Made by a program: the position numbers and the translations under genes. Positions 17,431 through 28,946 of a stretch of 64,000 bases of DNA are shown here, in pieces; the first letter of the stretch is position 1; every line of letters begins with the position of its first letter. The DNA comes from Deltaproteobacteria bacterium. Its GTDB lineage: Bacteria > Desulfobacterota > BSN033 > UBA1163. The stretch lies in the NCBI GenBank assembly GCA_020059605.1, contig JAGVBT010000049.1, forward strand, positions 45,120-109,119. Reading direction: 5' to 3'. The notes beneath the pieces were generated by a model, which was not told where the DNA came from, did no database searches, and worked only from the letters and a program-made list of their open reading frames with translations.

Positions 17431-18159
17431 ATGAATCCTTCACAGGAGATTTCAATCTTCATCGCATTTACTGCAGGGATTCTCTCTTTTGTCTCGCCCT
17501 GTGTACTCCCCCTTGTTCCCTCCTATATCACCTATATCACAGGAGTTTCTTTCAAAGAGTTCACCGACGCCAACATAAGGCCCCGAATCAGGTGGGCCAC
17601 AATGCTGCATTCCACTCTTTTTATCTCGGGGTTTTCAACGGTCTTTATCCTGATGGGCGCATCGGCCTCTTATCTGGGACAGGTATTGATCGAATATCAA
17701 TCCTGGATTATGAAGGGAGGGGGGGTGCTCATTATCATCCTGGGAATTCATTTCACCGGGATCATCAACCTCCCATTCTTGCAGATGGAGAAACGCTTTG
17801 AATTGAGAAAGAAACCCCTGGGCTATCTGGGGTCTTTTCTCGTGGGGGTCGTCTTTGCAGCCGGGTGGACCCCCTGTATCGGTCCCATCCTTTCGACGAT
17901 CCTCATCTATGCCAGCACATCAAAAGATTCCACGACCGGCGTCTATCTGTTAACGGTCTACTCCATGGGACTTGGAATTCCCTTCTTTCTTTCCTCCCTG
18001 GCCTTGAGCACTTTTCTTTCAGCCTTCGAAAGAATAAAGCGGCATATGAGGTGGATTACTTTGATCAGCGGGATTTTTTTGATCCTGATCGGGATCCTCT
18101 TTTTGACCGATACCTTCCGCGAAGTCAACGCCTTTTTCAACCGGCTCGCCAATCCCTGA
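17431..18159 (+). CDS. ccdA: cytochrome c biogenesis thiol-disulfide transporter CcdA (DsbD-family transmembrane core)
   Basis: Paired Cys in TM1 (FVSPCVLPLVPSYI) and a later TPCIGP. Six TM helices. 242 aa. Confidence 0.8.
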   Translation: MNPSQEISIFIAFTAGILSFVSPCVLPLVPSYITYITGVSFKEFTDANIRPRIRWATMLHSTLFISGFSTVFILMGASASYLGQVLIEYQSWIMKGGGVLIIILGIHFTGIINLPFLQMEKRFELRKKPLGYLGSFLVGVVFAAGWTPCIGPILSTILIYASTSKDSTTGVYLLTVYSMGLGIPFFLSSLALSTFLSAFERIKRHMRWITLISGIFLILIGILFLTDTFREVNAFFNRLANP

Positions 18160-18414: not shown

Positions 18415-18765
18415 GGACACAATTTGGTATTAATTTTGCTAATAAATATAAAGATAGGTCCTTAACGAGGGTATACTTCGACGGGCCCGGCACGAAGGGC
18501 CGCAAAATTCAGTTTCGATATCCATAGAATTGCAGACTTTAGTAAATTAATAAAGAATGGGAGGAAGGGTTGAGAGGATTTTGATTTTTTTTCTTTTTTT
18601 TGTTGACATTTATATAGTTTATTTTAAGATAGGCATGAATTCAAGCCAGGACCGCTGGAGTTTTTTGAGTCATAAAAACGAAATCGTAACCTATTTGGGC
18701 AAAAAAGATTAAGGTCTTGTCATTCCCGTGTCGACCGGGGAAAATTAAAAACAGGGGGGAATAAA

Positions 18766-19407
18766 ATGAAAGGTGTAAAACTGTTATGGATTGGATTTGT
18801 TTTTTTTCTGGCCACAGGCCTCATGGTTTCATCCCACCTCAACGGAGTATATGCGGGGTCTATTGTCGGCACAAAACACGATTTAAGCATAAGATCATGG
18901 GGAGCAGGGAGTGGTTCAAATCAAATTTGTATTTTCTGCCATACGCCTCATAATGCCAGGACTGATTTACCCGAAGTGCCCCTGTGGAATCATGGCACAA
19001 CCACAACGAATTTTAATCTCTACACAAGCCCCACACTTGATGCAACAGTAGGTCAACCAAACGGTGCGTCAAAAGCCTGTCTTTCCTGCCATGACGGAAC
19101 CGTTGGATTGGATGTTTTTGGGGAAAAAGCTTCCAGCCCGCATACGATCGGAGCAGGACGGTTTAATTTGGGGACAGACCTTTCAAACGACCATCCCATT
19201 TCTTTTACGTATGATGCCGCCCTGGCCGCCAAAGACAAAGGTTTATATGCACCAGTGGGAGCGGATAAGGTTGTAGAGGGTATTCCCCTCTATTACGGCA
19301 AAATGGAGTGTTCTTCCTGCCACAGCGTTCATGATAATACCAATCAACCTTTCCTTCGCCATACAAATGTTGGGAGCGCACTCTGCTTGAAGTGCCATAT
19401 AAAATAG
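18766..19407 (+). CDS. tetraheme c-type cytochrome (secreted)
   Basis: Signal peptide, then 4 CxxCH motifs (CIFCH, CLSCH, CSSCH, CLKCH) plus 8 further His. Homologous to the N-terminal ~190 aa of the 566-aa cytochrome at 24426. Confidence 0.8.
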   Translation: MKGVKLLWIGFVFFLATGLMVSSHLNGVYAGSIVGTKHDLSIRSWGAGSGSNQICIFCHTPHNARTDLPEVPLWNHGTTTTNFNLYTSPTLDATVGQPNGASKACLSCHDGTVGLDVFGEKASSPHTIGAGRFNLGTDLSNDHPISFTYDAALAAKDKGLYAPVGADKVVEGIPLYYGKMECSSCHSVHDNTNQPFLRHTNVGSALCLKCHIK

Positions 19408-19547
19408 GCTGCGGCAATCTGAATTATAGAGAATTCCCTTCAAACCGGTTCGACGATTTATTCAAATTCTTGGGTGCTTCAAATCCCCCCTCGCCTCTTG
19501 TCACAAGAGAGGGGAGGGGGGATTATTCATTTCGTATCATTTAACAT

Positions 19548-20702
19548 ATGCCATGCTTTTCCCTTAAGAAGCTTGCCGAAAGAATGCCGATGAGCCGATT
19601 TTTTAGGGAATTTCTGTCGGTTCTATTTTTGCTGACTGCATTCTGGGGGTGTGCGACCGCTCCGCATAAACAGGATGTCCGGCCGGCGGTTTTTTATCCT
19701 CCGTTGCCCAACCCGCCCCGTATCCAATACCTGTCAAGCTTCTCGTCGGCAAGAGATGTCAGTGCGCCTCAAAGCAAGCTGGCCGAATTCATCGTGGGGA
19801 AAGACCCTAAGGAAGAGTACGCCCTTAAGAAGCCTTATGGCCTTTCCATATTCGACGGGAAGATTTACGTGGTGGATACCCAGGGGCCCGGTTATGCCGT
19901 GTTTGACCTGAAGAATAAGCTGTTGAAAGGAGTTCCGGGGGCCGGGGCGGGGAGGATGAGGAAACCCATCAATCTCACCATTGACAGGGACGGGACCAAG
20001 TATGTTACGGACACCGGATTGAACCAGGTCCTTGCTTTCGATAAAGACGACAATTTTCTTCGGGCCTACGGGGTAAAGGACCAATTCAAACCCGGGGACG
20101 CAGCCGTATCAGGGGACCGCCTCTATGTCTCCGACCTGAAGAATCATGAAATCCAGGTCCTTGACAAGGTCTCGGGAACACTGCTTTTCAAATTCGCAAA
20201 AGCCGGGGCTAAGGAAGGAGAGCTCTATTATCCGACGAATATGGCGGTCGGGCCGAACGGCCACCTCTATGTTTCAGAAACGGGAAATTTCAGGGTCCAG
20301 AAGTTTACTCTTGAAGGAAAGCCTGTCCGGACATACGGCCAGGTTGGGAACAGGCCAGGGCAGTTTTCAAGGCCCAGGGGCATTGCATTGGACCGCCAGG
20401 GTAACATCTATATTGTGGATGCGGCCTTTGAAAATATCCAGATCATCGACCAGGAAGGCAGGGTCCTTCTCTTTTTCGGCCAGCCCGGGAACAACCGGGA
20501 GGATATCAATCTCCCCGCAGGCATTGTGATTGACTATGAAAATGTCCCTCTCTTTCAGCAATACGCCGATTCGAAGTTCAAACTGGAGTATCTCATCCTG
20601 GTAGCCAGCCAGTTCGGTGTGAGCAAGGTGAATGTGTTTGGGTTCGGAAGGATGGAAGGGATGGATTACACCGTTCCGGGACCGGTTCGCCAGAAGAAAT
20701 AA
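19548..20702 (+). CDS. NHL-repeat (six-bladed beta-propeller) lipoprotein
   Basis: Signal with Cys (LTAFWGC). Repeated NHL-type blades (YYPTNMAVGPNGHLYVSETGNFRVQKF, PRGIALDRQGNIYIVDAAFENIQII). Paralog of 23349-24425. Confidence 0.7.
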   Translation: MPCFSLKKLAERMPMSRFFREFLSVLFLLTAFWGCATAPHKQDVRPAVFYPPLPNPPRIQYLSSFSSARDVSAPQSKLAEFIVGKDPKEEYALKKPYGLSIFDGKIYVVDTQGPGYAVFDLKNKLLKGVPGAGAGRMRKPINLTIDRDGTKYVTDTGLNQVLAFDKDDNFLRAYGVKDQFKPGDAAVSGDRLYVSDLKNHEIQVLDKVSGTLLFKFAKAGAKEGELYYPTNMAVGPNGHLYVSETGNFRVQKFTLEGKPVRTYGQVGNRPGQFSRPRGIALDRQGNIYIVDAAFENIQIIDQEGRVLLFFGQPGNNREDINLPAGIVIDYENVPLFQQYADSKFKLEYLILVASQFGVSKVNVFGFGRMEGMDYTVPGPVRQKK

Positions 20703-20734
20703 CCATCCTTGATCCCCGGGTAGCGCCAACTCCA

Positions 20735-21313
20735 ATGGGTCTCAGGATTAGAAAACGTCCATTTGCCGCCCTTTTCCTCTTTTTCGCTGTCCTCTTCACT
20801 TTGGCAGGTTGTGATCCGGAGACCCGGTACCGGGCGCTCAATTTTTTCTTTGACGGAGTCCCCCGGCCAGACGAACCGCCGAAGAAAGAGGAGATCCCTG
20901 CGGCCAAAATCGCCACCGTAAAACAGGAGGCTCAAGCGGAGACACCTTCAGAAATAGTTTATTACAGGCACCCGCCCGCAGAGGGAAAAGACGATTGTTC
21001 CTTCTGCCACGGGCCTGTCAGCCAAATTGTGATTCCTCCCAAGGACATGTGCCTGAAATGCCATGAACACCTGAAGGAAAACCGTCCCTTTCTCCATGGC
21101 CCGGCTGTCGTGGATTGCGTTTTTTGCCACAATGTCCACCGGAGCCAGACGAAAACCCTGCTGAGAAAAACCGGTAACCCCCTCTGTTTTGAATGCCATG
21201 ATCAACAGAGCGTGATTCAGGGAGAATCACATCGGGAGCTGAAGGAAGAGGAATTCGTTTGCCTTTCCTGCCATGACCCCCACGGCGGGAAAGACCGATT
21301 TTTCCTGCGATAA
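20735..21313 (+). CDS. pentaheme c-type cytochrome lipoprotein
   Basis: Canonical lipobox LAGC, then 5 CxxCH (CSFCH, CLKCH, CVFCH, CFECH, CLSCH) in 192 aa. Confidence 0.75.
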   Translation: MGLRIRKRPFAALFLFFAVLFTLAGCDPETRYRALNFFFDGVPRPDEPPKKEEIPAAKIATVKQEAQAETPSEIVYYRHPPAEGKDDCSFCHGPVSQIVIPPKDMCLKCHEHLKENRPFLHGPAVVDCVFCHNVHRSQTKTLLRKTGNPLCFECHDQQSVIQGESHRELKEEEFVCLSCHDPHGGKDRFFLR

Positions 21314-21321
21314 GAAAGAAT

Positions 21322-23313
21322 ATGTTCGTCCTAAACAGGGTGGAGATGCCCAGAAATTCCGACCTTATATTCATCTGCCTGACGATCCTGGTGGTTTCCG
21401 CCCTATTTGCGGGCGATTGCGCGGAAGCCCAGCGGGTCTACGGACGCGAAGAAGAGGAAATCCGTCTTTTTACGCTTCGGGAATTGGGCGGGGCGCTGGA
21501 GTTCAGGTTTGAGTATGAAGACGACCGGGAAGAGGGGGGAGGGAGGCCTTTTGAGAGAAAGGAGACCCGGTTCGAGGAGCTGTTACAGCTTAAGACCCGG
21601 GGGTCTCTTTATCACCCGAACCTTCTGGATTTCCGGATTGATACCACCTTTGGATTAAGGCAGCAAGTGTTCAGCGGAGACCTGGATGACCGCAAGCAAA
21701 CCTTTCCGTATGAATATCATGTCCATCTCAATTTTTTACGGGAGAAGCCTTACGGGTTCAACCTCTTTGCCCTTCGGTCCTCCAACCCGGTCGGGAGAAC
21801 CTTTTTTGAAACGATCGACATCGAGTCCGATTCCTACGGAGGGGCTTTCCGGTACCAAAATAAACTTTTCCCCATGACGCTGCTTCTTTTGAACCAGAGC
21901 ACAAAGGAGGATTCCCGGGATTATAAAAGAGACCGGAACGAACGGACCGCCGATTTCAGGGTTTCCAATAAGCTGAAGGATATCCTGGAGAGCGATTTCA
22001 AATATGTCTTGAAAGACCTCGTCGAGGAGATCCCGTTCAAACAGGAGATCACCACTCACGATATCAGCCTCAACAGCAGGCTGAGTTATGGCAAAATACG
22101 GGGGTTTTCCAACCTCTCCTACCTGAAGACATCGGGGGGTTTTAAAACGGATCAGCTGCGGATCATTGAAAATTTTCATGTCGATCATTCGAAGTCATTG
22201 ACCACCCTCTATCAGTATTATTTCTCCCATTTTGCGACTGAAGATTTCAGGTCCAATTTGAACCAGGGAAACATCGGGTTTCGGCACGCCCTTTACGAGA
22301 GCCTCGTCACCGAAGTCAGGGGGGAAGTCAGCCTGACGGATGCCACCGAGTTCGAGGAGCTCTATTACGGTTCCAATCTATCTCTTTCCTATCGAAAAAA
22401 AATCCCGGGCGGAGTCCTCTCTGCTGGATATCATTTTCTTTACAGAAGAACCGACCGGGAGGCGGAGGAAGGTGTCGTCAAGATCTTTGGAGAGCGGATC
22501 GTCCTCTCCGACAGTCAACGAACCTTTCTTGCTAACCCCAATGTGATTCGCGATTCGGTCATCGTCCGGGATTCGTTCGGCATCCTGTTGACGTTAAATG
22601 TCGATTACCGGCTCATCGTAAGCGGGAACCTGACCGAAATTCAACGTGTGGGCCTCCCGGACAACACCCCTGTCCTGGTCGATTATGAATTTTTATCTCC
22701 ACGGTCTCTCAAGTTTGATACCCTCAGCCATGGAGTGAACTTGCGTTACGACCTCGGGAGATTAATTTCATTGTACTACAATTATCTCAATGCCAGGCAA
22801 AAGGAGATTTCCGTCCGGCGCCGGGCAGAGTCCACCGCGGCCCTGTATGATACGGAGAGGAGTCTCTACGGGGCAGAATTGAAATGGCGCTGGTTTCAAA
22901 TTGCAGGCGAATACGAGGACGACAACTCCGAACTGATTCCCTTCACAGCTTACAGGGTGCGCGGCTATTTCAGCATCTCTCCCATCGAGCACACCTCCCT
23001 CAGCCTGAGCGCCATCCGCAGCCGGACCATGTATGAAAGGGACAGGAGAACAATGGTCACGAACCGGGCGGATGGACTCTTCCGTCTTCGCATCAATTCC
23101 TCTCTTGAAGCGTTGCTCGGGGCGGGATATTTAAGGGAGAAGGGAAGGGATATTGACACCCGGGCATGGAAATGGAAAGGTGATTTAATAGGAAAATTCC
23201 GCTCCATCGAATTGAGGCTCCAGTCGGAGTATCTGAAGAGGCGCGAGATCGCCCAGGACCGGGATGAAATCATCGTAAAACTAAAATTGATCCGGCACTT
23301 CCATATTCGCTAA
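21322..23313 (+). CDS. putative outer-membrane beta-barrel protein (porin-like partner of the cytochromes)
   Basis: Signal peptide. 663 aa, rich in Tyr/Arg/Ser/Asn with long runs of alternating hydrophobic residues typical of amphipathic beta-strands. No cysteine-rich or enzymatic motif. The start lies 8 bp after the pentaheme cytochrome stop. The C-terminus (HFHIR) is not a classical aromatic OMP terminus. Confidence 0.4.
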   Translation: MFVLNRVEMPRNSDLIFICLTILVVSALFAGDCAEAQRVYGREEEEIRLFTLRELGGALEFRFEYEDDREEGGGRPFERKETRFEELLQLKTRGSLYHPNLLDFRIDTTFGLRQQVFSGDLDDRKQTFPYEYHVHLNFLREKPYGFNLFALRSSNPVGRTFFETIDIESDSYGGAFRYQNKLFPMTLLLLNQSTKEDSRDYKRDRNERTADFRVSNKLKDILESDFKYVLKDLVEEIPFKQEITTHDISLNSRLSYGKIRGFSNLSYLKTSGGFKTDQLRIIENFHVDHSKSLTTLYQYYFSHFATEDFRSNLNQGNIGFRHALYESLVTEVRGEVSLTDATEFEELYYGSNLSLSYRKKIPGGVLSAGYHFLYRRTDREAEEGVVKIFGERIVLSDSQRTFLANPNVIRDSVIVRDSFGILLTLNVDYRLIVSGNLTEIQRVGLPDNTPVLVDYEFLSPRSLKFDTLSHGVNLRYDLGRLISLYYNYLNARQKEISVRRRAESTAALYDTERSLYGAELKWRWFQIAGEYEDDNSELIPFTAYRVRGYFSISPIEHTSLSLSAIRSRTMYERDRRTMVTNRADGLFRLRINSSLEALLGAGYLREKGRDIDTRAWKWKGDLIGKFRSIELRLQSEYLKRREIAQDRDEIIVKLKLIRHFHIR

Positions 23314-23348
23314 GAACGGGATAGAATTTTTTAAAATAAGGAGAAAAA

Positions 23349-24425
23349 ATGGTGCCTCCCCACCGGTTCTTTCCGGGCCGATTCGGTCGGTTCCCTGTCC
23401 TGTTTTCCTTGCTGCTCCTGGCATGGACGCTGGCCTTGAATGCGGGATGCGGAAAACCGTCTCCTCCCCCGGCCGGGGTTTCCACCCCATCTCTTGTGTG
23501 GCCGCTTCCCCCTGAAAAACCTCGGATCCAGTATCTCTATTCCATCGCGGTTCCCGAAGATATCGGCATCTCCGCCTCGGTTTATGAAAAGGTCGTGGGG
23601 CTTTTGGCGGGGAAGAAGCCGTCGCGGCAGATGGTGAGACCCTACGGAATCCATTTAAGCGGGGGCGGGATACTCTCTGTCACCGACCCTGGGATGGGAA
23701 CCGTGCATCAGTTCGATATGAGGAATTTGAGATACCATCAGATCAAGAGGTTTGGGCGAAAGAACCTCGTTTCACCGATCGGAGTGACCATGGATGAATC
23801 AGGGCTCCTTTATGTGTCCGACTCCATATTAAGAAAGATCTTTGTATTCGGTCAAAAGGGGGAGCCCGTGAGGGAACTCGGAGGTGAGGATCGGTTCATC
23901 CGGCCGACAGGAATGGCCTTTCATCCATCGTTGAATAGACTCTATGTCGCGGACACCCTGGGACAGTCCATTCAGGCCTTCGATCTCGGCGGGAATCTCC
24001 TCTTCGGTTTTGGAGGAAGGGGAAACAACGAGGGAGAGTTTAACTTTCCCACTTCTCTATCGATCGATCGGAACGGAAATTTATATGTGAACGATTCATT
24101 AAATTATCGAATTCAAATCTTCAAACCCGACGGGAAGTTCCTTGCCATGTTCGGAAGGCACGGGGATGGGATGGGTGAATTTTCAAACCCGAAGGGAGTT
24201 GCCCTCGATACGGAAGGGCATATCTACGTGGCGGACGCTCTTTTCGATTCGGTTCAAATCTTCAGTCCGAAAGGGGAGCTTCTCCTTTTTTTTGGCGAGG
24301 CCGGGAGGAAGGCGGGAGAATTCTGGATGCCTGCTTCCCTCTTCATCGATCCTACCAATCGGATTTTTGTCGCCGATTCCTACAATCAGAGAATTCAGGT
24401 GTTTCAATTTCTCGGGGGGCATTAG
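23349..24425 (+). CDS. NHL-repeat (beta-propeller) lipoprotein, paralog of 19548-20702
   Basis: Signal with Cys (LALNAGCGK). NHL blades (GEFNFPTSLSIDRNGNLYVNDSLNYRIQIF, GEFSNPKGVALDTEGHIYVADALFDSVQIF). Shares the N-terminal P-x-P-R-I-Q-Y-L motif with the first NHL protein. Confidence 0.7.
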   Translation: MVPPHRFFPGRFGRFPVLFSLLLLAWTLALNAGCGKPSPPPAGVSTPSLVWPLPPEKPRIQYLYSIAVPEDIGISASVYEKVVGLLAGKKPSRQMVRPYGIHLSGGGILSVTDPGMGTVHQFDMRNLRYHQIKRFGRKNLVSPIGVTMDESGLLYVSDSILRKIFVFGQKGEPVRELGGEDRFIRPTGMAFHPSLNRLYVADTLGQSIQAFDLGGNLLFGFGGRGNNEGEFNFPTSLSIDRNGNLYVNDSLNYRIQIFKPDGKFLAMFGRHGDGMGEFSNPKGVALDTEGHIYVADALFDSVQIFSPKGELLLFFGEAGRKAGEFWMPASLFIDPTNRIFVADSYNQRIQVFQFLGGH

Positions 24426-26126
24426 ATGATAAGACGAAGAACGACCGGAACGCTGATCCTCTTCCTGCTCCTTCTTTTTCATAGCCGTGCGGAGGGAAGA
24501 AGCATTATTTTCACAAAGCATAACCTGTCCGTCTCCGGCCCCGGGCCTGTCAAGGCAACGGTTGAGAGACCTGTCTGCCAATTCTGCCATACCCCTCATC
24601 ATGCGGGACAGGCCAAGCCGCTGTGGAACAAGGATATCCCCGAGATTCTTTATACCACTTACCGGAGTTCGTCGCTCAAAGCGGGTCCCGGGCAACCGAA
24701 CGGGGCCTCCAAGCTTTGTCTCTCGTGCCATGACGGAACCATTGCCCTGGGGTTGCTTCGAAGCGAAAGCCAGATTCTCCCCTTTGCGGGGGGCGTGTTG
24801 ACCATGCCCCCCGGAAGAACAAACTTGGGCCTTGATCTCTCCGACGACCACCCGATTTCATTTCCGTATGACAGCGCCCTGGCGTTCCGGAACGGCCAGT
24901 TGGAGGATCCGGCAAATTTGAGAAGGCCGGTGAAATTGGATTCCTATGGCCAGCTCCAGTGCACGAGCTGCCATAATCCTCATGACGACCATTTTGGGAA
25001 ATTCCTGGTGATGGAGAATCGTTATTCGGCCCTCTGTATCACCTGCCACAAGAAGACAGGGTGGATGATTACCTCGCATCGAAGCTCGTGCCGGACCTGG
25101 AACGGGGGACCTCCGAATCCATGGCCCCATACTTCCTATGCGACCGTTTCCGAAAACGGATGCGAAAATTGCCATCGTCCCCATGCAGCCGGAGGAAGAG
25201 AGAGGCTGCTGAATTACGATGTGGAAGAGGAAAATTGTTATCCCTGCCATAATGGAAACGTGGCCTCCAGGAATCTGAAGAACGAATTCATGAAGCCCTA
25301 TCGCCACCCCGTGGAGGGCAGCAAGGGAATCCATTTTCCGGACGAAGATCCCCTCTGGGCGACTCGCCACGTGGAATGCGCCGATTGCCATAATCCCCAT
25401 TCCGCCAACGCCGCTACTGCAAACCCGCCGATGGCCTCGGGGAGGATATCAAATGTCGCGGGGATTTCTTCTTCCGGGACGGTCGTTTTTCCCCTTACTT
25501 ACGAGTATGAATTATGTTACCGTTGCCACGCGGACAACCCTGGGACAAAGCCCCTTCTTGTGACCCGTTATCTCTTCGAGCCCAATCTTCGATACAGATT
25601 CAAACCCTCCAATGCCTCTTATCATCCGGTTGAGGCGGTCGGGAAAAATGCGGACTGCCCAAGCCTTCTCATTCCTTACACCACCTCCAGCCTCATTTAC
25701 TGCACCGATTGTCACAACAACGATTCGGGTCAAAAGGCAGGAGGGGTCGGGCCCAGCGGACCCCACGGATCGATCTGGAGGCCCCTTTTGGAAAGGCAGA
25801 TGGTTACAGCGGATTACACGATCGAAAGCGCCCAGGCCTACGCTCTTTGTTACAAATGTCATGACCGGAATTCGATCCTGTCCGGTCAAAGTTTTACAAA
25901 ACACCGGAAACATATCGTGGATGAGAGGACTCCCTGCACCGCCTGTCATGACCCCCACGGGGTGGCGACGAATCCGCACCTCATTAACTTTGATAAAATG
26001 ATTGTTTTTCCCAATGATCAGGGGATCCTTCAGTTTGAGGACCGGGGGCGGTCTGCGGGGGCCTGCTCTTTGAGATGTCATGGAATCAACCACAAGGGGA
26101 GGAATTATCAGCGGGATATCCCGTAG
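24426..26126 (+). CDS. multiheme c-type cytochrome (11 CxxCH plus one CxxxCH)
   Basis: Signal peptide, 11 canonical CxxCH and a C-terminal CSLRCH (CX3CH). The N-terminal 190 aa are homologous to the tetraheme cytochrome at 18766. The start codon abuts the stop of the NHL gene (TAGATG). Confidence 0.8.
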   Translation: MIRRRTTGTLILFLLLLFHSRAEGRSIIFTKHNLSVSGPGPVKATVERPVCQFCHTPHHAGQAKPLWNKDIPEILYTTYRSSSLKAGPGQPNGASKLCLSCHDGTIALGLLRSESQILPFAGGVLTMPPGRTNLGLDLSDDHPISFPYDSALAFRNGQLEDPANLRRPVKLDSYGQLQCTSCHNPHDDHFGKFLVMENRYSALCITCHKKTGWMITSHRSSCRTWNGGPPNPWPHTSYATVSENGCENCHRPHAAGGRERLLNYDVEEENCYPCHNGNVASRNLKNEFMKPYRHPVEGSKGIHFPDEDPLWATRHVECADCHNPHSANAATANPPMASGRISNVAGISSSGTVVFPLTYEYELCYRCHADNPGTKPLLVTRYLFEPNLRYRFKPSNASYHPVEAVGKNADCPSLLIPYTTSSLIYCTDCHNNDSGQKAGGVGPSGPHGSIWRPLLERQMVTADYTIESAQAYALCYKCHDRNSILSGQSFTKHRKHIVDERTPCTACHDPHGVATNPHLINFDKMIVFPNDQGILQFEDRGRSAGACSLRCHGINHKGRNYQRDIP

Positions 26127-26189: not shown

Positions 26190-27179
26190 TCAATCGGTCT
26201 TAAAAAAGGATTGAAGCGCCTTTTTATATTCCAATAAAGCGCGTTCTTTCTGTCCTTCCTTTTCATAGAGCCTTCCGAGATGGTAATGGACCTCGGGAGT
26301 CTCGTGCCGGTCTTGCAGCAGATCTTCCAGCCTTTTGATGGCTTTTGTATTCTCCCCCATCAATTCCAAAGAGAGCGCGATCCCGACGGACCCCTGTCTT
26401 AAATTGGGATTCAGGCCGATTCCCCTCTCAAAGAATTCAATGGCCTCTTTTGGGTTCTTCTCTTTGAGATGGATCATCCCCAGCCCTACGTATGCATCGG
26501 CATGGCCGGGATCCAGCTGGATGGCTTTCAACCATTCTTCCCTGGCCCTCTCTTGAGAACCTTTTTCAAAAAGATTCTTCCCGAGATTGAAATGGGCCTG
26601 GGCCTTCTTTTTGTTTTCCGGTTGGGGATCGCCCCTGGGTTGACGCTCTTTTTCCCATTCCTCGGCTGTTTTCTTCCCCATGGCCACCAGGACTTCTCCT
26701 TCCACGATCTCGTCAAGCGAGTGGGTGTAAGGAAAGGCCTTGAGAAGCCTCCTTTCCTCATCCAGGATGCCTGCAGTCGGAATCACATGAACTCCATAGG
26801 CGCCGTACACTTCCCTTTTATCATCAAGGAGCATAGGATGGGACCAGTCATGGGCGCGCCTTAACTTTTTGACCTTCTCTTTGGCATCGGGATCCGAAAT
26901 AATGGAGATCAAATAAAGGCCATCACCCTTGAGCCGGCGGTAAAGGCCCTCCAGCCGATTCATAACGCTCAAAGACCTTTTCTCCTTGACAGGGGTGTCG
27001 ATGCCCCAGAAAAGAAGCACCACCTTGCCCCCCTTGATCGATGGGAGGACAATGTCGTTGCCGTCAAGGTCCTTCAATTGAATCTCGGGGGCTTTCTCCC
27101 CGATCTCGAGGTTGCGAAACGCAGAGACACCCGTAGGAGAAAGCATTCCGGCAAGAATAACTGGGAAGAGGAGAGACAT
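26190..27179 (-). CDS. periplasmic thioredoxin-fold (TlpA/AhpC-like, lacking CxxC) + TPR-repeat protein
   Basis: Signal peptide. N-terminal Trx-like fold with FWGIDTP in place of the WCxxC active site. C-terminal TPR repeats (AHFNLGKNLFEKG ... AYVGLGMIHLKEKNPKEA ...). Confidence 0.55.
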   Translation of the reverse strand: MSLLFPVILAGMLSPTGVSAFRNLEIGEKAPEIQLKDLDGNDIVLPSIKGGKVVLLFWGIDTPVKEKRSLSVMNRLEGLYRRLKGDGLYLISIISDPDAKEKVKKLRRAHDWSHPMLLDDKREVYGAYGVHVIPTAGILDEERRLLKAFPYTHSLDEIVEGEVLVAMGKKTAEEWEKERQPRGDPQPENKKKAQAHFNLGKNLFEKGSQERAREEWLKAIQLDPGHADAYVGLGMIHLKEKNPKEAIEFFERGIGLNPNLRQGSVGIALSLELMGENTKAIKRLEDLLQDRHETPEVHYHLGRLYEKEGQKERALLEYKKALQSFFKTD

Positions 27180-27266: not shown

Positions 27267-28946
27267 TCAGTATTTTACCGGTTTTGCCCGGTCATAGGTG
27301 AAGGGTTTGTGGCAACCGACCACGCAGGTGCCTCCCGTGGGGGTCTTCGTAAAATGAATGGGATAGCTCCACATCTTTCCGTAAGGCACTTCTTTCCTGA
27401 TGTGTTTCGGCTGGTTCCCGGCATGGACTTCGTGGCATGCCTTGCAGCTTCTTCCTTTTCTTTCCTTATTCACATGGACAAAATGAAGATTGCGGTCTCC
27501 GTTTCGAAAGCTCGTCAGCTCCAGCGTCTTGGGGTGGAGGGCGATATCCTTGTTGTGGCAGTCGAAACAGATGGCATAGTTCTCCGTCTTGTAGGAGATA
27601 TAAAATTCGACCGGGAAATAGTTTTTTAAGATCCTCGGAAAAAGCGATCCATGGGTTTGATGGCAGGCGGCGCAGTCATTCTGCTCCACAGGACCATGAA
27701 AATATTTGCTTGTTCTGGTTTTTTCTCCCAGGTCCTGATGGCAGGTAAAACAAATTTCCTTGAGCGGAGCCTTCAGTAGTTTTTCAAAATCGGTGAAATG
27801 AACGCCGTGGCACGCCGAACACTCCCCTTTTTGAACTGGCTGGTGAGGGAACTTGGCCTGGGCAATGGATTGGGTGGTTTTCGGATGGATGGTTTGATGG
27901 CACTCAATGCACAGTTGATTCTGCACTTTTCGCAGCAAGGCCTTCTGTGAGGAGGCGTGAGGATCATGGCATTCCTGGCAATTCTCTTTGATGATGGGGT
28001 GGACGTATTTTTTATTTAAACCTTTCTCGATGTCTTGATGGCAGGAGTAGCAGAGCTTTTCCGAAGGCAGGGTCAATAATTTCTTATTGGGCGAAGCGTG
28101 CGCATGGTGGCAGGCAATGCAATCCCCGCCTTTGAGCGGTTCATGGAGGTTGGCCTGCTTAACGAGCTTAGCGTCATGGCAATTAAAGCAGAATTCCTGT
28201 CGGGAGGAGCTTTTCAATTGGTAGCGGAGAGGAGATTGATGTGGGTCATGGCAATCGCTGCACCCGCCTTCTGATACGGGTGCATGGACCGACTTCCCCT
28301 TAAATTCTTCCGCTTCCGTTTCATGGCAGATGTAGCAACCTTCCGCCCCCGGCCTGGTCATCATGTTTTTGAAAGGCGTGCCATGGGGATTGTGGCAGGC
28401 GATGCATGTTCCCGAACCAACCGGCCCATGGACAAAATTTGCCTTTCCCATCTGGGAGTGGCACTGGGGGGAGACGCAGGTCGCGCTGGGAATCATTTTC
28501 TTATAAGAGAAAGGTTCTCCCTTTAAGGCATGACAATCCTGGCATTGGTCTTCTCTCTCTATCGGGAAATGGATGGTATAAGGCCGGAAGCCTTCAGGAG
28601 GCCTGGCATCCTCTGTTGAAAAGTGGATCGAGAGCGGTTGTGTCATCCTGCCGGCCTGGTCCTGAACCGATATTTCATTCAGTCCCTTCTTGAGGCGAAT
28701 TGCAACGGTGAAGGCCCCCTTGAGGACAGGAACGGTTGTTGTTCCCAGGACCTCCCCTCCCTTCACCTGGCACGTAACATTCTTGACGGATGGATCCGTG
28801 GCCACCCCGATGATCCTGATTCTCTCCCATTTAACGACGCTGCGGTCGGCAGGATAAACGATACGAAACCCTTCTTTTGCAGCCCCCGTGTGAATCGGCA
28901 GCAGAAGGCAACACATGCATATCCCAACCAGAATAACATTCCTCAT
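27267..28946 (-). CDS. large multiheme c-type cytochrome (14 CxxCH + CX4CH + CX3CH) with N-terminal Ig-like beta domain
   Basis: Signal peptide and ~110-aa beta-rich domain. This is followed by c3/c7-like repeat units (…HGPV..G.CxxCH.PH…) containing 14 canonical CxxCH plus CVSPQCH and CVVGCH. Confidence 0.8.
   Translation of the reverse strand: MRNVILVGICMCCLLLPIHTGAAKEGFRIVYPADRSVVKWERIRIIGVATDPSVKNVTCQVKGGEVLGTTTVPVLKGAFTVAIRLKKGLNEISVQDQAGRMTQPLSIHFSTEDARPPEGFRPYTIHFPIEREDQCQDCHALKGEPFSYKKMIPSATCVSPQCHSQMGKANFVHGPVGSGTCIACHNPHGTPFKNMMTRPGAEGCYICHETEAEEFKGKSVHAPVSEGGCSDCHDPHQSPLRYQLKSSSRQEFCFNCHDAKLVKQANLHEPLKGGDCIACHHAHASPNKKLLTLPSEKLCYSCHQDIEKGLNKKYVHPIIKENCQECHDPHASSQKALLRKVQNQLCIECHQTIHPKTTQSIAQAKFPHQPVQKGECSACHGVHFTDFEKLLKAPLKEICFTCHQDLGEKTRTSKYFHGPVEQNDCAACHQTHGSLFPRILKNYFPVEFYISYKTENYAICFDCHNKDIALHPKTLELTSFRNGDRNLHFVHVNKERKGRSCKACHEVHAGNQPKHIRKEVPYGKMWSYPIHFTKTPTGGTCVVGCHKPFTYDRAKPVKY

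Follow-up and report, generated by a model that had tools for sequence, protein, structure and literature searches.

Here we describe a cluster of cytochrome, beta-propeller and beta-barrel genes in a 64,000-nt stretch of DNA (hereafter the window) from a Deltaproteobacteria bacterium (contig JAGVBT010000049.1), and we analyze the gene duplication that it carries through comparison with related loci from other bacteria. Six open reading frames (ORFs), designated A, B, C, D, B' and A', are under study. All six were found on the plus strand, in the order A-B-C-D-B'-A' and at the positions assigned to them by a first-pass annotation of the window, with successive intergenic gaps of 140, 32, 8, 35 and 0 bp. 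These genes, and a hairpin located between the first two, are listed below in window coordinates:

18766..19407, plus strand, 213 aa: A, an OmcE-like tetrahaem cytochrome with a signal peptide, proposed major nanowire subunit (homology to PDB 7TFS and 9YUQ)
19482..19524, plus strand: GC-rich hairpin directly 3' of A, candidate attenuator or terminator (17-nt arms, 9-nt loop)
19548..20702, plus strand, 384 aa: B, an NHL beta-propeller lipoprotein, putative partner of A (Pfam NHL, E 2.4e-22; lipobox-like FWGC)
20735..21313, plus strand, 192 aa: C, a pentahaem lipoprotein cytochrome (five CxxCH; lipobox LAGC; Paired_CXXCH_1, E 4e-19)
21322..23313, plus strand, 663 aa: D, a predicted large outer-membrane beta-barrel of ~28 strands (AlphaFold2 model, Foldseek)
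23349..24425, plus strand, 358 aa: B', an NHL beta-propeller lipoprotein, putative partner of A' (Pfam NHL, E 8.7e-29; lipobox NAGC)
24426..26126, plus strand, 566 aa: A', whole ORF (OmcE-like domain plus 8-haem module)
24426..25061, plus strand: N-terminal part of A', a signal peptide and OmcE-like tetrahaem domain (PDB 7TFS match)
25062..26126, plus strand: C-terminal 8-haem module of A', with seven CxxCH and one CxxxCH (MtrC/MtrF domain II/IV, E 1.3e-14)

The duplication that relates A to A' and B to B' is real and lies far beyond chance. The first-pass annotation had proposed it by eye from a set of shared sequence blocks, and BLASTP bears this out: residues 32-213 of A align with residues 26-210 of A' with 83 of 190 identities (44%; E 8e-43), and the alignment contains all of those blocks, namely KH(D/N)LS, C(I/Q)FCHTPH, PLWN, GQPNGASK(A/L)CLSCHDGT, DLS(N/D)DHPISF, YD(A/S)ALA and C(S/T)SCH. 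The likeness thus goes well beyond the CxxCH haem motifs, and it persists in the DNA as segments of 62 nt at 74%, 55 nt at 78% and 23 nt at 91%, with a constant offset of ~5.65 kb. B and B' share their architecture as well, with 104 of 308 identities (34%; E 7e-53) that include the P-x-PRIQYL strand, and both score above the Pfam cut-off for NHL. Haem sites number four in A (all CxxCH), five in C and 12 in A' (11 CxxCH and one CxxxCH); the extension of A', estimated beforehand at ~370 aa with 7-8 extra hemes, measures 354 aa and holds eight haem sites, close to that estimate. The broader proposal, of an ancient duplication of a cytochrome-propeller pair with elaboration of one copy, is supported by the comparative data (tree, and orthologue versus paralogue scores) with two refinements. 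To judge by its homologues, the elaboration is a domain fusion of an OmcE-like domain to a separable, mobile 8-haem module, and the mirrored A-B...B'-A' order is not universal but one of at least two conserved arrangements. The earlier annotation gave no identity for A, here assigned as a homologue of the OmcE nanowire subunit, or for the operon, here assigned as an omcE-type cassette.

By sequence homology, A is an OmcE-family tetrahaem cytochrome. Residues 17-213 of A match residues 12-232 of the Geobacter sulfurreducens OmcE filament (PDB 7TFS) at E 1.5e-38, and A matches PDB 9YUQ, a 218-aa chain in a 16-chain entry taken to be the D. soudanensis OmcE bundle (bioRxiv 10.1101/2025.10.22.684050), at E 2.9e-27. 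Four CxxCH motifs and four extra histidines form the conserved core of OmcE homologues, and the two filament-solved OmcE proteins are 41% identical to each other (bioRxiv 10.1101/2025.10.22.684050). A carries its CxxCH motifs at residues 55, 105, 182 and 207, its further histidines (H38, H62, H143 and H189) line up with histidines in both solved OmcE proteins, and it is about as distant from each of these as they are from one another. A therefore shows both the full-length homology and the haem ligands of an OmcE-type tetrahaem nanowire cytochrome, and it has in its vicinity the large barrel gene (D) and the propeller lipoprotein genes (B and B') by which Petersen et al. filter for nanowire-competent homologues. 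In the OmcE polymer one haem is ligated by a histidine of the neighbouring subunit, and stacked and T-shaped haem pairs alternate; A would probably form filaments too.

To place the cassette in a comparative context, loci (cited by L numbers) were collected in two ways. A genome scan with G. sulfurreducens OmcE yielded 80 loci, whose ORFs were called and compared with the window proteins, and eight further loci (L081 and L083-L089) were picked through A' instead of OmcE; the latter include five whose host is given in a source record, namely Azoarcus sp. DN11 (a complete genome; CP021731.1, 718596-740320), Verrucomicrobiales, Lentisphaerae, Kiritimatiellia and Rhodospirillales, and one Nitrospirae metagenome-assembled genome (MAG). 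The full cassette, in the order A-B-(C)-D-B'-A', is present in all eight A'-picked loci, each of which keeps the stand-alone A gene beside A'. The identities of their proteins to those of the window are given below, with the range obtained without the close relative L081 in brackets:

A': 52-75% (52-61%)
B: 38-67% (38-52%)
B': 38-68% (38-50%)
A: 39-55% (39-52%)
C: 25-56% (25-35%)
D: 22-59% (22-28%)

A' is the best-conserved cassette protein across the sampled loci. In L085, L087 and L089 the best BLAST match of window A is the A' head of the locus and not its stand-alone A (36% in L085), which shows again that A diverges faster than A'. In other lineages the order is direct, B-A ... B'-A'. Loci assigned by record title to Acidobacteriota, Nitrospirota, Myxococcota and beta- and gammaproteobacteria hold a stand-alone OmcE-like gene with an NHL gene, and in the same loci an NHL gene lies immediately upstream of the A'-type fusion, often with a 4-bp overlap. 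Loci of the Geobacter/Desulfuromonadia type read cytochrome (~335 aa) - cytochrome (~330 aa) - NHL - OmcE - barrel, in some cases with another NHL gene after the barrel. An OmcE-like domain considered for the accessory cytochromes of Geobacter was rejected, the hidden Markov model (HMM) matches being merely repeats of the C-terminal paired-CxxCH segment. Ahead of the cassette of the Nitrospirae locus L088 (1690-4528) stand three OmcE-sized cytochrome genes (225, 212 and 215 aa), which may encode multiple subunit variants.

The hairpin at 19482-19524 has 17-nt arms that are 94% complementary and a 9-nt loop, and the 151-nt fold has a minimum free energy of -44.2 kcal/mol (z -2.84). Comparable hairpins follow the OmcE-type gene in L081, L085, L001, L002, L028, L065 and L084, and classic terminators do so in Geobacter, a recurrence that suggests a conserved attenuation holding A in excess over the downstream genes.

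The age of the duplication was addressed with a neighbor-joining tree of 122 OmcE-like domains (100 bootstraps), in which all extension-bearing domains form one clade (85 of 100), together with forms truncated by the end of their locus and two split genes described below. This A'-type clade spans Acidobacteriota, Nitrospirota, Myxococcota and beta- and gammaproteobacteria, again by record title, in addition to the lineage of the window. By BLAST score, orthologues of A, B, A' and B' in other phyla surpass the paralogues within the genome; B, for instance, scores 399 bits against Azoarcus B and 158 against Azoarcus B'. In the point-estimate tree of NHL proteins all genes directly upstream of A'-type genes fall into one clade, which contains none of the ~70 NHL genes located beside a stand-alone OmcE gene. 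The propeller-cytochrome duplication is, on these comparisons, old, and they support inheritance of the cytochrome-propeller pairs as pairs. The second propeller of Geobacter-type loci (L005, L007, L011, L016, L020, L034 and L049), encoded downstream of OmcE, groups with the first propeller of those loci and not with B', indicating that the two propellers there arose by a separate duplication.

Within A', the first ~210 residues match PDB 7TFS at E 4.7e-26 as a single sequence and at E 1.6e-42 as a family profile. An alignment of 51 sequences shows the four CxxCH motifs of this OmcE-like domain, together with H32, H58, H142 and H186, to be invariant, so that all eight haem ligands are present; also invariant are H218, ten residues past the point where OmcE proteins end, and ten further non-motif histidines. 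An OmcE protein in the strict sense is a tetrahaem protein of ~200-300 aa that ends after its fourth CxxCH. A' continues for 354 aa and eight more haem sites beyond this motif, and it is therefore an OmcE-domain fusion and not an OmcE orthologue. Its pattern of 11 CxxCH and one CxxxCH recurs in 118 of 120 homologues. The family has >7,900 matches, with full-length identities of 52-58% in proteins attributed by their sources to Verrucomicrobia, Kiritimatiellia, Lentisphaerae, Nitrospirae, Nitrospinota and Proteobacteria. Among homologues with a name, the closest come from Thermodesulfobacteriota MAGs, with 58-62% identity.

The 8-haem module matches the pentahaem MtrC/MtrF domain II/IV at E 1.3e-14 and, weakly, PDB 6I5B, which we take to be OcwA, a surface cytochrome of Thermincola related to multihaem reductases. 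When 1.84 billion representatives at 50% clustering were searched, 303 relatives of the module were returned at E<=1e-30, and among the best 150 of these 303 we find 63 OmcE-domain fusions of 500-700 aa, ~12 complete stand-alone proteins with signal peptides and a few much longer proteins with the module at their C-terminus. Two Nitrospirota MAGs carry A' as split genes (L039 9569-11383; L046 14070-15970): the OmcE-like gene stops directly behind its fourth CxxCH, as OmcE does, and the 8-haem part is encoded by a gene of its own, whose product starts with a signal peptide and has a histidine-bearing N-terminal arm ('..KHSVHG..'). These split forms lie near the base of the A' clade in the neighbor-joining tree, and the unfused state may be the ancestral one. 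The split-gene architecture is consistent with docking of the module in the manner of a next subunit. Another form of the fusion is seen in L057, L060, L066, L076 (Aromatoleum), L072 (Gallionellaceae) and L063, which encode A'-like proteins of 800-900 aa, often in two tandem copies; behind an OmcE-like head these have a longer C-terminal extension with only 22-25% identity to the 8-haem module of the window.

With NHL bit scores of 78.2 and 98.5, respectively, against a Pfam cut-off of 20, B and B' show the repeats, the propeller-length match and the lipobox cysteine of six-bladed NHL beta-propeller lipoproteins; B' matches solved six-bladed NHL propellers over its full length (PDB E-values down to 8.6e-63), and the lipobox cysteine is kept in 78% of the cluster NHL proteins. 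Orthologues of B adjoin stand-alone OmcE genes in other phyla (38-67% identity). B' always lies immediately upstream of A'-type genes in the loci examined, the two abutting with no gap in the window and overlapping by 4 bp in many other loci. The PRIQYL strand of B and B' is an instance of a broader pattern, P[RK][IVL]x[YFW][ILVM], which 53 of 114 cluster-associated NHL proteins carry close to their N-terminus, among them those of Geobacter-type loci (as PRIEWL); this strand may close the propeller. A role as donor-histidine chaperones, in which the propellers would transiently ligate an open haem, was considered and rejected: the sole conserved histidine column is histidine in 73% of sequences, and the residue, in the NHEIQ of B, is glutamine in B'.

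These data also bear on whether the locus could encode a redox enzyme system, with the 8-haem module or the propellers converting a soluble substrate, for instance a compound of sulfur or nitrogen. The weak match of the module to PDB 6I5B and the unusual conserved CxxxCH site would fit such a role, as would the fact that some NHL propellers are catalytic, peptidylglycine amidating lyase being among the PDB matches. We nevertheless regard it as highly improbable. Between 16 and 17 conserved non-motif histidines are available for the 12 haems of A', so every haem can be bis-histidine ligated and no open catalytic site is implied; no catalytic family model was matched; and the conserved NHL residues, among the classes screened (H, M, C, W, D, R, K, E and Y), are mostly Asp, Arg and Tyr in a repeat-like pattern.

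The remaining cassette genes are C and D. C scores 81.8 bits against the DmsE-family model TIGR03508, and a 16-haem cytochrome encoded downstream of the cassette (27267..28946) scores 160.4, both below the cut-off of 192.2. The lipobox cysteine of C is followed by an aspartate at position +2 (LAGC-D). In E. coli, an aspartate at this position would signal inner-membrane retention, so that C may lie on the inner or on the outer membrane, at the periplasmic or at the surface face. D is predicted to be a large outer-membrane barrel: its AlphaFold2 (AF2) model is all-beta, with a mean predicted local distance difference test (pLDDT) of 86.9, ~28 barrel strands and an inserted strand-rich segment at approximately residues 385-460, and Foldseek matches it to the FimD usher, TonB-dependent receptors, MtrB (6R2Q_B; best TM-score, 0.42) and LptD. 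D has no match in Pfam or NCBIfam. With its family HMM, E-values are 1e-80 to 1e-127 for the barrels that occupy this position in L083-L085, and 1e-16 to 1e-21 for those that follow OmcE in L025, L028 and L029. Direct BLAST and phmmer comparison of D with Geobacter-type barrels returned nothing, and a weak link to them is given by hhalign (96.5% probability over the C-terminal 133 columns) and by BLAST single linkage.

An outer-membrane barrel accompanied by lipoprotein and periplasmic multihaem cytochromes is also what characterizes MtrCAB and the Pcc/Ext conduits of Geobacter. The locus might accordingly encode a plain porin-cytochrome conduit of the Mtr/Pcc kind that makes no filament, with A and A' as monomeric surface or periplasmic cytochromes that owe their shared fold to an old duplication and with the propellers as outer-membrane scaffolds. 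MtrB provides the best TM-score of D, C and the 16-haem protein match the DmsE/MtrA-family model (below cut-off), and the module of A' contains the MtrC/MtrF-like domain. For D. ferrophilus, NHL propellers have been proposed to stabilize a complex of outer-membrane cytochromes (Deng et al. 2018, PMC5815863), and a 2026 preprint names an Acidobacteriota cluster a 'porin-scaffold-cytochrome system' (bioRxiv 10.64898/2026.05.27.727921). Against this, A keeps every sequence feature common to both filament-solved OmcE proteins, the terminator-like hairpin after A suggests a high-copy product, and assignment to the Mtr/Pcc conduits fails at the level of family models: D lacks an NCBIfam match, the MtrB/PioB model is unmatched, the decahaem models stay below cut-off and the TM-score of 0.42 to MtrB is weak. 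To our knowledge, Mtr/Pcc clusters have no counterparts of the two NHL propellers and the OmcE-type subunit. A conduit of this kind is, in our assessment, unlikely.

Taken as a whole, the data are best explained by an OmcE-type extracellular electron transfer (EET) cassette in which A forms the wire, A' is a low-copy end subunit and B and B' are dedicated partners, a reading to which we assign a probability of about 0.6; that the locus is an OmcE-type EET cassette in the general sense is very probable. Electrons from periplasmic multihaem cytochromes (the 16-haem protein and C) would cross the outer membrane through or at barrel D. A would be exported and polymerize into an insulated haem wire, like OmcE of G. 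sulfurreducens and D. soudanensis. A', at low copy number, would join one end of the wire with its OmcE-like head via the normal subunit-subunit interface, so that the 8-haem module would sit at the position of the next subunit and would couple the wire either to the C/D conduit at the cell surface, as an anchor or nucleator, or to a substrate, as a tip. B and B' would act on A and A', respectively, as scaffold, chaperone or docking factors, and the B-A and B'-A' pairs would descend from the duplication of one old propeller-cytochrome unit.

The assignment of these roles follows from several features of the genes. A is taken to be the abundant, polymerizing subunit because it opens the operon, has a strong hairpin behind it and diverges faster than A'; A' is taken to be a low-copy, constrained component because it is the last gene, abuts B', is the best conserved and has all eight OmcE-domain ligands and H218 invariant. 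The head of A' is placed at the end of the wire, with the module as the next subunit, because the interface haem of OmcE needs a histidine from its neighbour. The specific idea that A' is the terminal adaptor of the wire is tentative. In its full form, A' (or the split halves) would be a terminal subunit whose head sits on the last subunit, whose H218 fills the open haem and whose module wires the filament to the conduit or to mineral, with B' as its assembly partner, and this we consider possible but, on balance, unlikely.

A' might instead polymerize itself, alone or mixed with A, into a decorated, 'leaky' wire with OmcE-like heads as its core and 8-haem modules as side branches. Such a wire would be compatible with the retention of all OmcE-domain ligands in A', with its high conservation and wide distribution, and with the 2025 preprint, in which OmcE-like proteins bearing one additional, solvent-exposed haem are reported and a new nanowire family that combines properties of OmcE and OmcZ is proposed. 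However, the 354-aa module and H218 start exactly where the OmcE chain ends, which would make docking of the next subunit harder, the last-gene position of A' suggests a low copy number, and a stand-alone A is always kept alongside A' in the eight A'-picked loci; we consider polymerization of A' improbable.

Several results weigh against the end-subunit reading and its evolutionary background. Filaments have been demonstrated only for OmcE proteins of Desulfuromonadia, which are ~30-41% identical to A by BLAST. No A'-type protein was found in any cluster of the Geobacter/Desulfuromonas type retrieved (L001-L038, L049 and similar), and since OmcE wires are formed by at least G. sulfurreducens and D. 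soudanensis, such wires do not universally require an A'-like adaptor. The sister relation between the A'-domain clade and the stand-alone A group of the window type is weak (41 of 100 bootstraps), and the B'-type NHL clade is recovered in only 25-27 of 100, for which reason the pairing is argued here from orthologue and paralogue scores and gene adjacency instead. The AF2 model of A', computed from the 51-sequence alignment, has a mean pLDDT of 48 and is unusable, leaving the docking idea to rest on sequence logic.

Among known systems, the closest is the omcE cluster of Desulfuromonadia, represented by OmcE of G. sulfurreducens (GSU0618, PDB 7TFS) and D. soudanensis (DSOUD_2954, PDB 9YUQ). 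Its minimal form comprises OmcE, two beta-propeller lipoproteins, two multihaem cytochromes and a large beta-barrel (bioRxiv 10.1101/2025.10.22.684050). The window operon contains this inventory, and shares with it the OmcE subunit, the adjacent propeller lipoprotein, the barrel, extra multihaem cytochromes, nearby maturation genes and a terminator-like hairpin after the subunit gene, but the two do not correspond as orthologues component by component. Geobacter-type loci have, as their two accessory cytochromes, paired-CxxCH proteins with 8-9 haems and no OmcE-like domain; their second propeller is a lineage-specific paralogue, the barrels are related to D at profile level only, and no B'-A' module was found in the loci retrieved. 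The examined OmcE operons contain no OmcE-like tip candidate, and a tip or stopper has been asked for (bioRxiv 10.1101/2025.10.22.684050); unlike them, the present cassette encodes a tip candidate, A', with its putative partner B'.

The osc (OmcS-companion) cluster of G. sulfurreducens offers a second parallel. According to Shen et al. 2025 (as cited in PMC13194489), it contains the paralogous, subunit-like omcT and oscC, proposed secretion proteins OscEFG and a propeller-like OscD that is proposed to affect OmcS wire morphology, so that both systems combine a nanowire subunit gene with paralogous subunit-like cytochromes, a propeller-like protein and proposed secretion proteins. No sequence relationship to the cassette was found, OmcS and OmcE sharing haem geometry and not sequence. 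The osc cluster also holds a proposed folding factor, OscH, a protein that contains a prolyl-isomerase; no counterpart of it was seen in this cassette.

Two further systems can be likened to the cassette by description: DFE_448-451 and DFE_461-465 of D. ferrophilus IS5, whose multihaem cytochromes are co-encoded and co-expressed with NHL propellers (PMC5815863), and the 'EET1 porin-scaffold-cytochrome' cluster of peat Acidobacteriota, which combines cytochromes and NHL propellers and whose structural models include OmcE-like multihaem cytochromes (bioRxiv 10.64898/2026.05.27.727921). Homologues of these clusters are widespread in anaerobes, and neither source describes a duplicated cytochrome-propeller pair or an OmcE-domain fusion (PMC5815863; bioRxiv 10.64898/2026.05.27.727921). 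The omcE nanowire cluster and the clusters of cytochromes and NHL propellers in sulfate reducers and peat Acidobacteriota are thus already known; what is new is a distinct and much more widespread omcE-type variant, with an extra B'-A' module that is not described in the literature searched.

How cytochrome nanowires start, are anchored, terminate and connect electrically is an openly stated gap, and the duplication is valuable mainly for the concrete candidate that it supplies for the end-piece of OmcE-type wires. The cassette is very widespread, with >7,900 A' matches and a complete genome, that of Azoarcus sp. DN11, among those that share its gene order. By encoding such a candidate together with its putative partner, it makes the question testable. 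It further shows that Geobacter is not typical, as every A'-picked locus pairs an OmcE-type subunit with a second, fused OmcE paralogue. Should the end-subunit reading hold, cytochrome nanowires would have a distinct base or tip component, comparable to the minor or tip pilins of pili.

Three further genes flank the cassette:

17431..18159, plus strand: CcdA-type thiol-reductant transporter, cytochrome c maturation, probable accessory (Pfam DsbD_TM, E 1e-18)
26190..27179, minus strand: thioredoxin-fold (AhpC/TSA, ResA-like) and TPR protein, probable accessory in cytochrome maturation or assembly (Pfam AhpC-TSA, E 8.9e-15; TPR repeats)
27267..28946, minus strand, 559 aa: 16-haem cytochrome with an Ig-like N-terminal domain, probable periplasmic feeder (Paired_CXXCH_1, E 9.4e-76; haem motif count)

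The first two of these bracket the cassette, and both types are linked to the provision of reduced apocytochrome cysteines; the NCBIfam ResA-like models score below their cut-offs for the 26190-27179 protein. Maturation genes also lie near related cassettes, as ResB/CcsA in L081 and ccm in L088. The 16 haem sites of the third protein comprise 14 CxxCH and two longer-spaced motifs, and its Ig-like domain is a weak match to Glucodextranase_B. The cassette neighbour in L081/L082 is 64% identical to this protein; for the first accessory cytochrome of Geobacter-type omcE clusters the value is 34-44%. A sigma-54 promoter was considered and set aside, the single -24/-12-like site (18425-18439, TGGTAT-N5-TTGC, ~330 bp upstream of A) having two mismatches and being no commoner than expected by chance. 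Sigma-54-dependent response regulators adjoin the cassette in L081 (462-3390), L085 (1-2347 and 13411-14790) and L088 (2-1207). Giant CotH/LTD-domain proteins are encoded just downstream of the cassette in L084 (14075-17965; Verrucomicrobiales) and L086 (10239-19459; Kiritimatiellia).

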